Positions 7,586-13,449 of a stretch of DNA of 64,000 nucleotides are shown piece by piece; position 1 is the stretch's first letter; each line of letters starts with the position of its first letter. The translations under genes were made by a program, and so were the position numbers. This DNA comes from an uncultured Alphaproteobacteria bacterium (GTDB taxonomy: Bacteria > Pseudomonadota > Alphaproteobacteria > Acetobacterales > Acetobacteraceae), in assembly GCA_963754235.1 (NCBI GenBank), contig CAVWFK010000036.1:1-64000 (forward strand), given 5' to 3'. The notes beneath the pieces are model-generated. The model saw only the letters and a list, made by a program, of their open reading frames with translations. It had not been told where the DNA came from and did not search any database.

Positions 7586-9349
<1,764 letters not shown>

Positions 9350-9637
9350 GTGCGTGGGTTTGTCCTATGGGCAGGGCCCGGCGGGGCCGGACCGTGTGGG
9401 CTGGCGCATCCGGCCGCGAGCGGGCTGGACACGGCTTGTCGGCGCGCTTGGCGCGGACCGGGTTGCAGCAAGAGGGCCCACGCCGGAGCCGGCGGAGCCT
9501 GCCTTGAAGAAGTATCGCGCGCGTGAGCAAAGTCAAGACGATGGCGGCGGATCAATTCCGCCGAGGCGATTCGGACGCGCGCCTCGGGCAGAAGCACGGA
9601 AGCTTGCGGTACATATCTTTGCTTGATATATTTTGCC

Positions 9638-10042
9638 ATGCCCGATGAGGCGATGCACCGCCTTCTGGACTATGATCGCCGGCGATATTGGCTGGTAAAC
9701 GGTTGGTGCATCCGCTTCCGGGTCGCCGAGGTCGCGGCCACCGCGGCGAGGCCGCACGGCATCAAGTACGCCCTTACGCTGCATGACATAGACGGAACAC
9801 GACTGCTGGGACTCGACAACGCGCACGGCGTCCCGCGTGCGCAGGCCTATGACCACCGGCATCGTTTCCGGCGGGCGGCGGAACCGATCCCTTACGATTT
9901 CCGAGGCGCGGACGAGTTGATCTGCGACTTCTTCGCCGCTGTCGAGCAAGCCTGCAAGCAGGAAGGCGTGCCATTCGAGTTTGAAGCGGAAGACGCTGAG
10001 TTGGAGATGGAGGGCAACGATGACGCGAACGTCCCTGACTGA
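9638..10042 (+). CDS. hypothetical protein, possible toxin component (DUF6516/TumE-like?) of a two-gene cassette
   Basis: ATG preceded by an AT-rich patch 'acatatctttgcttgatatattttgcc'. 'MPDEAMHRLLDYDRRRYWLVNGWCIRFRV..' has mixed composition. Overlaps the next gene by 23 nt. Confidence 0.45.
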   Translation: MPDEAMHRLLDYDRRRYWLVNGWCIRFRVAEVAATAARPHGIKYALTLHDIDGTRLLGLDNAHGVPRAQAYDHRHRFRRAAEPIPYDFRGADELICDFFAAVEQACKQEGVPFEFEAEDAELEMEGNDDANVPD

Positions 10043-10376
10043 GTTGCGGGAGGAGATGCGGGGTGTGACGCGTGGCGAGCGGCAGGCTTCGTCGCTCCCT
10101 GCGGCGCCGCTGCTCGCTGCGCTGTCTCGGGACGCGCTCGACTTGTTGGGCGTCCTGCTGCGGGAACGGCCTGCGAGCGTGACCGAGCTGGTGGCGCTGA
10201 CAGGGCGGGCGCAGCCAAATGTATCCCGGTCGCTGCAATTGCTCGCGAGGCACCGCCTGATCCGATTGGTGCGGGAAGGGCGCGAAGTCAGGCCGGAGCC
10301 GATCGCAAGCGCGGTACGGGTGGACTTGGCGACCGGCACCTATGAGACAACGCCGGCATCGGCAGCGGCGGCCTGA
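10020..10376 (+). CDS. winged-helix (MarR-like) DNA-binding protein, possible antitoxin or regulator
   Basis: '..VTELVALTGRAQPNVSRSLQLLARHRLIRLVREGREV..' HTH. Confidence 0.5.
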   Translation: MTRTSLTELREEMRGVTRGERQASSLPAAPLLAALSRDALDLLGVLLRERPASVTELVALTGRAQPNVSRSLQLLARHRLIRLVREGREVRPEPIASAVRVDLATGTYETTPASAAAA

Positions 10377-10393
10377 CTACCGGGCGCGGCGGC

Positions 10394-10624
10394 TCAGTCG
10401 CCCGCCGAGGCGATCCGGACCCGCGGCTCGGGCCGCACCGCATCCCGCACGGCTTCCTGCCAGTCCTTCGCCAGCGCCGGGTCGGCCGGTGATCCGTCAT
10501 CGAGCAGCGCCATGCCACCGAGCAGCGCGCCGAGCTGGTCGGACCCAGCCAGCGCGTACTGCCGTTCGAGGAACAGCACCATCGCCCGGTAGGCCTGCTC
10601 GGCGGTCAAAGTGGTCTTGCTCAT
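10394..10624 (-). CDS. hypothetical small protein (76 aa), possible immunity or antitoxin partner
   Basis: 'MSKTTLTAEQAYRAMVLFLERQYALAG..'. ATGA overlap with the upstream 103-aa gene. Confidence 0.4.
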   Translation of the reverse strand: MSKTTLTAEQAYRAMVLFLERQYALAGSDQLGALLGGMALLDDGSPADPALAKDWQEAVRDAVRPEPRVRIASAGD

Positions 10625-10932
10625 CGGTCCTCCCGGCGTGGCCGCAGCAGAGCGAGACCACTGCTCGGCGCAAAGTTTCGCGGCTGCGCGTTGACCCCGC
10701 CATTCACGATCTGGCCCGCCCTCGTCTTAACCCAGATTTGGGAGCCGTCGGACCGGTTGCGACCATACCACGCGTTGCCGTACCTGTCCGTGCCTCGAAA
10801 GACGGCGGCATCATTCGCCACCTCCACCAGCAACGCGCGGTTCTCCGGCGTGTCCGGGAGATGTCCCAGATCGGCGCGAAAGATGCGCCGCAACCGACCG
10901 GCGCTCTCGCTCGGCAGCGCGATGGCCGGCAT
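10621..10932 (-). CDS. hypothetical protein (103 aa), possible toxin-like
   Basis: '..FRGTDRYGNAWYGRNRSDGSQIWVKTRAGQIVNGGVN..', globular composition. No family recognised confidently. Confidence 0.4.
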   Translation of the reverse strand: MPAIALPSESAGRLRRIFRADLGHLPDTPENRALLVEVANDAAVFRGTDRYGNAWYGRNRSDGSQIWVKTRAGQIVNGGVNAQPRNFAPSSGLALLRPRREDR

Positions 10933-10955
10933 GGCAGATCGCTCAGCCGGCAGGG

Positions 10956-11612
10956 CTAGCGCCCCACCCCGCCCAGCCGCTCCCGCACAATCGCGAGCGC
11001 CGCGGCGTACGCGGCCTCCGGGTCGAGCGCCGTCGTGTCCAGCGTCACCGCGTCCGGCGCCGGCCGCAAAGGAGCCGCGGTGCGGGTGCGGTCCTGCTCG
11101 TCGCGCAGCGCGATCTCCGCCTCCACCTCCGCGAGCGGCACCGCGATCCCGCGCGCGGCAAGCTCGCGCCAGCGGCGCCGGGCGCGCACGGCGGCGCTCG
11201 CGGTCACGAACAGCTTCACCGCGGCGTCGGGAAACACGACCGTTCCAACGTCGCGCCCGTCCAGCACGGCGCCCCGCCCGGCCCCGAAGCCGCGCTGAAA
11301 TTCGAGCAGGGCCGCGCGCACCGCCGGCATCGCCGCGACCAGGCTCGACGCGCGATCGGCCTCGGGCCCGCGCAAGTCGGACCGTTCGAGATCGGCGGGA
11401 TCGAGCGCACGCGCCGCCGCCGCGGCCGCCGCCGCATCGGCCGGATCGCCGCCCGCGTCCAGCACCCGCCGTCCGACCGCCCGATACAACAGCCCGGTAT
11501 CGAGATGCGGCAGCCCGAGCTCGGCCGCGAGCCGCCGCGCCAGCGTGCCCTTCCCGGACGCGGCCGGCCCGTCGATCGCGATCATCGGCGCGATCACCGG
11601 CGGGCGGGTCAC
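10956..11612 (-). CDS. cmk: cytidylate kinase
   Basis: '[13 protein letters not shown]..' P-loop, 218 aa. 4-nt overlap with aroA. Confidence 0.9.
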
Positions 11613-12946
11613 GCGAACGCCGCCCCCAGACCCTCCATCAGTGCCAGGAAGCCCGGAAAGCTGGTGTCGATGAAGCCGGTGTCGTCCACGCGCACCGCCG
11701 CGCGCGACGCGAGCCCCAGCACCAGCGCACTCATCGCGAGCCGATGATCCATTTGCGTCGCGACCAGGCCGCCGCCGGGCGGGGCGCCGTCGCAGCCCTC
11801 GATCACGAGATCGTCGCCCTCGATTGCGACCCGCACCCCGTTTGCCGCGAGCATCGCGGCCGTCGCGGCGAGCCGGTCGCTCTCCTTCACGCGCAGCTCG
11901 CGCAGGCCCCGCAGCCGCGTCGTCCCCCGCGCGCAGGCGGCGGCGACGGCCAGGATCGGGTATTCGTCGATCATGCTCGGCGCCCGCTCCCAGGGCACGT
12001 CGATCGCGCGCAAGCCGCTATGGCTCACCACCAGATCGCCCACCGTCTCGCCGCCTTCGAGGCGCGCGCCCGAGACCGTGATTGCCGCCCCCATCTCCCG
12101 TAGGCAATCCAGCAGCCCGGTCCGCAGCGGATTGAGGCCGATGCCCTCCAGTGTCACCCGCGACCCCTCCACCAGCAGCCCCGCCACCAACGGGAACGCC
12201 GCAGAAGACGGATCGCCCGGCACGATCACGTCGCGCGCGCGCAACTCGGGCTGGCCGCGCAGCCGGATCACCCGGCCCCGCTCGCCGACCGTCTCCACCG
12301 CGATCTCGGCGCCGAAATGGCGCAGCATGTTCTCGCTGTGATCGCGCGTCGCCTCCGGCTCTTCGACGCGGGTTTCGCCGGGCGCGTTCAGCCCGGCCAG
12401 CAGCACCGCCGACTTCACCTGCGCCGAGGGCACCGGCACACGATAATCAAACGGCAGCGCCTCGCGCGCGCCCTCGATCGCGAGCGGCAGGCGCCCGCCA
12501 TCGCGGCCGGCGAAGCGGGCGCCGCAGGCAGCGAGCGGGTCGGTCACGCGGCGCATCGGCCGCCGTCGCAGGCTCGCGTCGCCGGTCATCACCGCGAACA
12601 GGTCGTGGCTCGCCAGGATGCCGCAGAGCAGCCGCGCGGCGGTGCCGGAATTGCCCATGTCCAGCACGTCTTTGGGCTCCGCCAGCCCCCCGATGCCGCG
12701 CCCGGCCACCAGCCAGTCGCCGCCCGGCCGGCACGCGACCTCGGCGCCGAGCGCACGCATGGCGGCCGCCGTGCGCAGCACGTCCTCGCCCTCCAGCAGC
12801 CCGGTGATGCGCGTCTCTCCGACCGCGAGTGCCCCGATCATCAGCGCGCGATGGCTGATCGACTTGTCGCCCGGCACGCGGATGCGCCCGGCGAGCGGCC
12901 GGGCCGGGCGGGAGGCGGCGAGCGGACGGGCGGGCATCGCGGACAT
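11609..12946 (-). CDS. aroA: 3-phosphoshikimate 1-carboxyvinyltransferase
   Basis: '..[22 protein letters not shown]..'. Start ambiguous because of in-frame ATGs inside the upstream tandem repeat. Confidence 0.9.
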
Positions 12947-12997
12947 GGACGGGTCAGGGCGCATGGACGGGTCAGGGCGCATGGACGGGTCAGGGCG
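12944..12997. repeat. 18-bp tandem repeat x3 encoding (RPDPSM)3 at the aroA 5' end
   Basis: 'catggacgggtcagggcg' x3. Each unit carries an in-frame ATG. Confidence 0.7.
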
Positions 12998-13119
12998 CTT
13001 AGCATCCCTCGCGGCGGTTTGACAGGCGAGCAGGCTGCGACGTTTGACAGTCACGCAGGCCGGTGGCATGGCCGCGCCCTCCGCCGGCCCGGCCGGCGTT
13101 GCGCGAAAGATCCCGCCCG

Positions 13120-13449
13120 ATGGTCAAGCCCGAACTCGGCACCAAGCGCGTCTGCGTCGCCTGCGGCACCCGCTTCTACGACCTGACCAGGACGCCCGCG
13201 ATCTGCCCGAAATGCGGCACCGAGCAGCCCGTCGAGCAGCCGCGGCTGCGCCGTCCGCCGAGTGCCGCCGCCGAGGACCGCCGGGCACGCAAGGCGCCGG
13301 TGCCGGAGGAGGCTGACGTCGAGCCCGTCGCCGCCGCCGACGAAGCGGAGGAGGATGTGCTGGAGGACACCTCCGACCTCGAGGACGACGCCGACGCGAT
13401 CGGCCCCGACATCGAGGTGGAACCCGAGGGCGACGAGACCGAGCGCTAG
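13120..13449 (+). CDS. TIGR02300 (FYDLN_acid) family protein
   Basis: '[36 protein letters not shown]' followed by an acidic tail. Confidence 0.8.

Follow-up and report, generated by a model that had tools for sequence, protein, structure and literature searches.

Two probable toxin–antidote modules of separate origin between cmk and rpsA in an Acetobacteraceae bacterium

We analysed a 64,000-nt stretch of high-GC DNA from a member of the Acetobacteraceae (the window; 69.6% GC), in which the cytidylate kinase gene cmk and the ribosomal protein S1 gene rpsA are separated by 1,606 bp (9350–10955) containing exactly four small open reading frames (ORFs). On the evidence set out below, it is probable that these ORFs make up two unrelated two-gene toxin–antidote modules that were acquired at different times: a plus-strand pair, tumE and tumA (tumEA; cassette 1), and a minus-strand pair, tox103 and imm76 (cassette 2). 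The original prediction for this locus had described the four ORFs, their strands, the 23-nt and ATGA overlaps within the pairs and the 1.6-kb gap, all of which we recovered, and had suggested toxin–antitoxin (TA) or toxin–immunity modules. Homology supports that suggestion, with TA applying to cassette 1 and toxin–immunity to cassette 2; it also calls for a correction, in that the cassettes are not related to each other and were gained on separate occasions.

Judged by their homologues, the four ORFs are real genes and not chance ORFs of GC-rich DNA, because two of the encoded proteins match Pfam families above the gathering score and all four have homologues elsewhere. The original prediction had further held that none of the four proteins could be confidently assigned to a family. 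This stood for the 103-aa and 76-aa proteins, which have no match in Pfam or NCBIfam, and fell for the 134-aa and 118-aa proteins, which fit curated Pfam families.

The tumE–tumA module and its candidate promoter

The 134-aa protein matched the Pfam family TumE (PF20126, formerly DUF6516) with 29.8 bits (cut-off 23.4) over 72 of the 81 profile positions, and the 118-aa protein matched the winged-helix family HVO_A0114 (PF25212) with 42.7 bits against a cut-off of 27.6 and MarR_2 with 28.7 bits. TumE homologues number 362 in all; the 120 that were listed are 68–89% identical and nearly all 134 aa long, and PF20126 is present in all but one of them. Downstream of tumE and on the same strand, a tumA homologue was found in 83 of 86 loci, most commonly with an ATG start and a 23-nt overlap, the arrangement that is also seen in the window, where the two frames overlap at 10020–10042 and GGAGGG precedes the tumA ATG. 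A 139-aa version of TumE starting from TTG 9623 was disfavoured, because the homologues are 134 aa long, and the start was taken as ATG 9638.

The pair of a 134-aa and a 118-aa protein with the 23-nt overlap recurs in unrelated contexts, among them an integrase island and a chromosomal site beside a DUF423 gene. Homology to other tumEA modules extends from approximately 35 nt before the tumE ATG to approximately 6 nt past the tumA stop codon, which points to a unit of about 780 bp, roughly 9600–10383. By these profile matches and this recurrence, cassette 1 is a TumE–TumA type II TA module of a toxin-first subtype recognised by bioinformatics. A scan of viral contigs for TumE returned no relatives. 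At loci L088–L091, tumEA lies in an island together with a tyrosine integrase gene, a GmrSD_N (type IV restriction-like) gene and a WYL-domain gene, a context which suggests that the module travels with defence islands.

In the work that defined the TumE–TumA superfamily (Durairaj et al., Nature 2023; PMC10584680), six gammaproteobacterial DUF6516 proteins arrested the growth of E. coli and their partners rescued it, and one of the six lowered the incorporation of 35S-methionine; an RNase activity was proposed, not shown. The authors call the partner-first order 'predominant' (clusters 1, 2, 4 and 6), not universal, and the validated pairs, all of them partner-first, come from subcluster 1a. 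Like members of the superfamily, the window pair has a TumE domain scoring above the cut-off, a bicistronic arrangement, a small predicted DNA-binding partner and overlapping frames, and its relatives also occur in mobile and defence-island contexts. Unlike the validated pairs, it has tumE first, as do the 83 loci mentioned above, and its partner is an HVO_A0114 winged-helix protein. The toxin-first order marks a subtype and does not exclude membership of the TumE–TumA superfamily.

In front of cassette 1, an AT-rich, promoter-like patch had been predicted. The region 9558–9637 indeed has a GC content of 57.5%, as against 69.6% for the window, and a conserved candidate promoter and operator lies inside it. 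The layout upstream of tumE comprises a −35 element TTGCGG (9604–9609), a 17-nt spacer, a −10 element TATATT (9627–9632) and 5 nt to A9638, and contains no Shine–Dalgarno sequence. It includes the palindrome ATATC-N7-GATAT (9613–9629), which occurs only once in the 64 kb, where 0 occurrences are expected. Alignment of the upstream regions of tumE homologues revealed a common order of TTGC(A/G)(A/G), 3 nt, ATATC-N7-GATAT, approximately 8 nt and ATG; 64 of the 69 unique upstream regions contain the palindrome without a mismatch, the spacer differing between regions and the distance to the ATG hardly changing. Given this layout, the tumE mRNA is probably leaderless, and the operon would be autorepressed by a TumA dimer bound across the −10 region. 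Neither the palindrome nor the probable leaderless start is mentioned in the excerpts of PMC10584680, and in this respect, too, the window pair departs from the published description.

The tox103–imm76 pair

For cassette 2, PADLOC, like Pfam and NCBIfam, gave no match to either tox103 (103 aa) or imm76 (76 aa), and PHROGs gave only chance-level matches to tox103 (E 0.12 or worse). Only six relatives of tox103 emerged from a word-indexed search. A profile built from tox103 relatives and searched against 1.84 billion cluster representatives retrieved 1,461 proteins at E ≤ 0.001, of which 1,046 at E ≤ 1e-10 (clusters at 50% identity). Among the 150 best representatives, the domain ends at most 15 aa from the C terminus in 143; the residues ahead of it number at least 100 in 76 and fewer than 40 in 38. 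Ten long family members included five with RHS repeats and one with an N-terminal PBECR5 domain, and the family member P0024 carries an Rhs-associated core domain. According to Zhang et al. 2012 (PMC3482391), C-terminal placement on long, varied delivery proteins defines a polymorphic-toxin domain; the C-terminal position of the tox103 domain on Rhs and other long proteins thus argues that it is a polymorphic-toxin C-terminal domain. The 459-aa protein P0020 joins an N-terminal PBECR5 (phage BECR nuclease 5) to a C-terminal tox103-like domain and so combines two putative RNase-type modules. A Pfam scan of 43 family members gave scattered noise, with one weak match to a barnase-type Ribonuclease (E = 0.005), and NCBIfam returned nothing for the toxin domain of canonical members. 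CylK beta-propeller repeats, which came up in a profile search of PDB sequences, were judged spurious.

The imm76 family follows the toxin domain in four independent settings (L001, L175, L174 and P0004). On the low-GC contig L001, the tox103 homologue belongs to an array that also contains a CdiI_ImmP immunity gene and a fragment of a Tse2 ADP-ribosyltransferase; at L174, an imm76-like gene comes directly after a 1,124-aa Rhs gene that ends in a tox103-like domain; and in the metagenomic protein P0004, the imm76-like part is fused in frame, as the C-terminal half. With Z = 1e6, the imm76 profile gave E values of 2e-5 for L001, 4e-4 for L175, 0.02 for L174 (a truncated 46-aa fragment) and 1.5e-20 for P0004. 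The model of imm76 is a three-helix protein, and no DNA-binding family in Pfam or NCBIfam matched it. In the window, tox103 starts 23 nt past the cmk stop codon and in the same direction as cmk, and is joined to imm76 by the ATGA start/stop overlap; its ribosome-binding site is weak compared with that of imm76, which has a GGGAGG Shine–Dalgarno sequence 5 nt upstream of the ATG.

Placement and pairing identify cassette 2 as a stand-alone polymorphic-toxin tip with its immunity gene, a known kind of pair that has no curated family name, neither family being represented by a Pfam or NCBIfam model. As in the polymorphic toxin systems of PMC3482391, which comprise Rhs/CdiA C-terminal toxin domains followed by immunity genes as well as stand-alone ('orphan') toxin–immunity cassettes, the domain occurs at the extreme C terminus of Rhs and other long proteins, with an immunity gene directly downstream and homologues in arrays. 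Unlike in those systems, the window copy has no delivery domain, lies between housekeeping genes and carries an Arg at a position where 94% of the family has a His.

The AlphaFold2 (AF2) model of tox103 contains helices at residues 11–17 and 29–39 and strands at 45–48, 54–59, 65–71 and 74–81. Colicin-like BECR RNases have a pre-alpha + alpha + beta1–beta4 topology, with the catalytic His on the pre-alpha helix (bioRxiv 10.64898/2026.08.28.747851), and the topology of the model matches this published definition, as in the colicin-like BECR-fold tRNases (colicin D and CdiA-CT toxins). The match weakly suggests a colicin-D-like RNase fold of the BECR type for tox103. A Foldseek search of the model against the PDB gave no significant match. 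All family invariants (H24, D49, W55, G63, W67, G79 and N81) are kept in tox103. The first His of the HIFRDxEGH motif sits on the pre-alpha helix, at position 16 of tox103; among 145 representatives, 136 have His at this position, six have Lys and none has Arg, and the window copy has Arg16. Unlike the colicin-like BECR RNases, the window protein lacks the conserved His on the pre-alpha helix; the invariant H24, in the loop after the helix, is present.

The cmk–rpsA junction and its history

The junction had been described as conserved, which holds in part. Among 80 loci retrieved around cmk homologues and searched for aroA, cmk and rpsA, 11 from Acetobacteraceae and other Alphaproteobacteria had 124–376 bp between the cmk and rpsA matches. 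In a Falsiroseomonas metagenome-assembled genome (L004), however, 1.7 kb of different cargo occupies the junction. This cargo (L004 6618–7941) is a 302-aa ORF resembling alpha/beta-hydrolases and, convergent with it, a 137-aa cupin-like ORF, which indicates that the junction tolerates independent insertions. Several relatives with the full 6-kb flank, such as Roseomonas alba (L002), lack an rpsA beyond cmk. In the Acetobacteraceae, the two genes usually lie close together, but their spacing is not fixed and insertions can occur.

Cmk is 65–76% identical to homologues in Roseomonas, Falsiroseomonas, Roseicella and Dankookia, and RpsA is 93% identical to that of the close relative L082 and 81–88% identical to those of other Acetobacteraceae. 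Window positions 9201–9537 align by blastn, with 71% identity, to the DNA just upstream of L082 rpsA, and in an rpsA leader alignment the block CTTGACTTTGC...GCGCGATACTT is common to both. The GC content at third codon positions (GC3) is 0.75 for tumE, 0.79 for tumA, 0.79 for tox103 and 0.87 for imm76, as against 0.89–0.91 for rpsA, cmk, aroA and sppA, the last of which is also carried on the minus strand of the region; the lowered values of the four genes are consistent with a foreign origin, imm76 being nearest to the host value. No further copy of any of the four proteins was found within the 64-kb window, and Rfam gave no RNA family in 9200–11100.

Relatives preserve several states of the locus. 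In L082, aroA and cmk are followed by an imm76 homologue (68% identical) and then by rpsA; a toxin gene and tumEA are absent. L084 and L085 share 643 bp with window positions 10016–10658 at 90% nucleotide identity, a span that takes in tumA and imm76 together with the final 37 nt of the toxin gene. Outside this span the two contigs differ from the window, with an aldo-keto reductase gene as upstream neighbour, and tumE is replaced by a 70-aa ORF (L084 5877–6089) that keeps only the last nine residues of TumE (GDNDDANVPD). At L086, a remnant of approximately 30 aa is all that stands of the toxin in front of the imm76 homologue. The states of L082, L084/L085 and L086 indicate that the toxin was lost repeatedly while the immunity gene was kept. 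The N-terminal part of the 70-aa ORF in L084 resembles, by eye, the tail of a ParD/CopG-type antitoxin, and the ORF has the appearance of a scar of recombination, after which TumA remained as an orphan.

A 32-nt direct repeat (9558–9589 and 10402–10433; 91% identical) flanks tumEA in the window. Read on the minus strand, the copy at 9558–9589 gives PEARVRIASA, as compared with PEPRVRIASAGD at the end of imm76, and is frame-shifted; it occupies the position at which the imm76 stop codon abuts the rpsA leader in L082. This vestige of the imm76 3′ end beside the rpsA leader implies that tumEA arrived after the toxin–immunity pair. Long flanking direct repeats as a general signature of tumEA transposition were considered across 75 loci and rejected: the longest string common to the two flanks has a median length of 8 nt, versus 7.3 nt for shuffled flanks, and the only ones that stand out are the window (13 nt without a mismatch, or 32 nt at 91%), L130/L136 (19 nt) and L160 (14 nt). 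Because flank repeats are not general among tumEA modules, the duplication in the window was treated as a one-off recombination scar. In L130 and L136, the exact 19-nt direct repeat that flanks tumEA is GCGCTAGCCGAAACTCGGC.

Table 1 Features of the cmk–rpsA region in the window
Feature	Position	Strand	Basis or remark
rpsA (ribosomal protein S1)	7586–9349	−	587-aa ORF; flank of the insertion
rpsA upstream region (promoter/leader), native DNA	9350–9544	−	blastn to L082
imm76 3′-end vestige, duplicate of 10394–10433	9545–9591	−	direct repeat; putative scar of tumEA arrival
tumE promoter/operator (candidate)	9604–9637	+	conserved palindrome; function inferred
tumE, TumE/DUF6516 toxin (predicted), 134 aa	9638–10042	+	Pfam PF20126
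tumA-like antitoxin/repressor (predicted), HVO_A0114 winged-helix, 118 aa	10020–10376	+	Pfam PF25212
imm76, immunity protein (putative), 76 aa, predicted three-helix	10394–10624	−	pairing with toxin domain
tox103, stand-alone polymorphic-toxin C-terminal domain, predicted colicin-like BECR-type fold, 103 aa	10621–10932	−	
cmk (cytidylate kinase)	10956–11612	−	218-aa ORF; flank of the insertion; 87% identical to L082
aroA	11609–13069	−	next to cmk

Beyond cmk, the longest aroA ORF opens with a threefold tandem repeat (18 nt × 3; window 12944–12997, minus strand). Relatives of aroA align only from approximately residue 40, so that the true start probably lies downstream and the repeat in the upstream region. 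A small FYDLN_acid zinc-ribbon-like ORF (13063–13449, plus strand) is divergent from aroA and appears to be ordinary conserved context; the assignment is based on a visually recognised FYDL motif and on L082, which has a PF09538 gene at the corresponding position.

Proposed course of events and alternatives

From these comparisons we infer an order of events in which the toxin–immunity pair would have entered downstream of cmk in an ancestor; tumEA would then have become attached to the 3′ end of imm76, probably through two crossovers, one homologous and the other illegitimate, that left a duplicated imm76 remnant of 32–47 nt beside the rpsA promoter; and toxin genes would afterwards have decayed in some lineages. 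In this scheme, tox103 would correspond to just the toxic C-terminal tip of the Rhs and other long delivery proteins found in other bacteria, and imm76, which appears to be translationally coupled to it, would be the cognate immunity protein that binds and blocks the toxin. Without a delivery domain, tox103 could not be exported, so that the pair would be a reserve recombination cassette, an immunity gene with a perhaps attenuated relic, or a TA-like addiction pair. Selection would keep imm76, which relatives retain with the toxin deleted or truncated. TumE would be the toxin of cassette 1, in keeping with the translation block in tested relatives, and the HVO_A0114 winged-helix protein its antitoxin; most likely TumA would also repress the operon, as a dimer on ATATC-N7-GATAT across the −35/−10 spacer and the −10 box. 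What the sequences show directly is the structure of the genes, their matches to families, the conservation of the pairing and of the palindrome, the duplicated stretch and the condition of the locus in relatives. Toxicity, neutralisation and RNase activity, like autorepression and the leaderless start, we infer from homology and gene layout.

A more detailed composite is put forward tentatively, and we would not expect all of it to hold. It takes tox103 and imm76 to be a large uncurated family pair, a colicin-like BECR RNase warhead of Rhs proteins counting 1,461 or more clusters at 50% identity, of which the window copy would be a domesticated, non-secreted version, with the putative catalytic His changed to Arg, in a housekeeping operon; and it takes toxin-first TumE/HVO_A0114 to be a self-contained mobile unit of approximately 780 bp with a leaderless, palindrome-controlled promoter.

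Several observations weigh against the interpretation as two toxin–antidote modules, or against parts of it. For cassette 1, the antitoxin gene comes first in the validated TumE pairs, which fall into a subcluster other than the toxin-first HVO_A0114 subtype, and a generic scan for sigma-70 promoters and terminators reported no site at tumE. For cassette 2, the tox103 model is of moderate confidence (predicted local distance difference test score 76.8) and derives from an alignment of 7 sequences, a structural search with imm76 gave no informative neighbour, and no secretion system and no Rhs-like, CdiA or type VI secretion system gene was found in the 64-kb window. Finally, Arg16 may mean that the window toxin is attenuated or dead.

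The substitution at position 16 is also the starting point of an alternative according to which only imm76 is functional, guarding its host against the Rhs toxins of neighbours, and tox103 is an inactivated relic heading for deletion. The residue lies on the pre-alpha helix of the model, the site of the catalytic His in colicin-like BECR RNases, and is never Arg in the 145 representatives, where His (136) and Lys (6) occur; in addition, L082, L084 and L086 keep imm76 with the toxin absent or reduced to 37 nt or approximately 30 aa, the GC3 of imm76 (0.87) is near that of the host whereas that of tox103 (0.79) is not, and the weak ribosome-binding site of tox103 contrasts with the GGGAGG of imm76. 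Yet tox103 has an uninterrupted reading frame from end to end and none of the invariant residues is lost, the invariant H24 could be the real catalytic His, and Lys16 in six members suggests that a basic residue at this position may be tolerated. Overall, we regard a relic as a serious possibility that falls short of being probable. Unlikely, in our judgement, is that tox103 and imm76 form a working chromosomal type II TA module, for addiction or abortive infection, and not the leftover of a secreted toxin. The intact tox103 ORF with its seven invariant residues and the tight translational coupling of the pair would suit such a module; short stand-alone forms are common in the family (the 38 of 150 with fewer than 40 residues before the domain), BECR folds serve TA toxins (RelE, BrnT and HigB) as well as polymorphic toxins, both of which are among the fold matches, and the pair lies within the aroA–cmk transcription unit and is therefore probably expressed. 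However, the 76-aa protein has no detectable DNA-binding domain, the classical mark of a type II antitoxin, relatives lose the toxin and keep the antidote, a pattern characteristic of immunity genes, among the short family members many derive from short metagenome contigs and could be incomplete, and His16 is Arg.

It is extremely improbable that the four ORFs are instead housekeeping or regulatory genes of the aroA–cmk–rpsA region, or chance ORFs. High-GC DNA yields many spurious ORFs, and the winged-helix protein has sub-threshold matches to ArsR/SmtB metalloregulators; but the ArsR model scored 35 bits against a cut-off of 55, whereas TumE and HVO_A0114 exceeded their curated cut-offs, most relatives lack these genes at the junction, and all four proteins have homologues in unrelated genomic contexts. 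A match to a housekeeping family, which the original prediction had named as the result that would tell against it, was found for none of the four.

The interpretation as two separately acquired toxin–antidote modules turns four 'hypothetical' genes into testable assignments. It leaves the understanding of such systems unchanged: these are fairly ordinary selfish or conflict genes in a chromosome, and the locus is a clear example of known biology. Within one small locus it shows conflict genes accumulating and decaying between essential genes, with immunity kept, toxins lost and a TA module landing alongside. Two leads follow, namely an abundant toxin-tip and immunity family (1,461 clusters) that is absent from Pfam and NCBIfam, and the strongly conserved palindrome and promoter layout of toxin-first TumE–TumA, which may offer a handle on autorepression by TumA.

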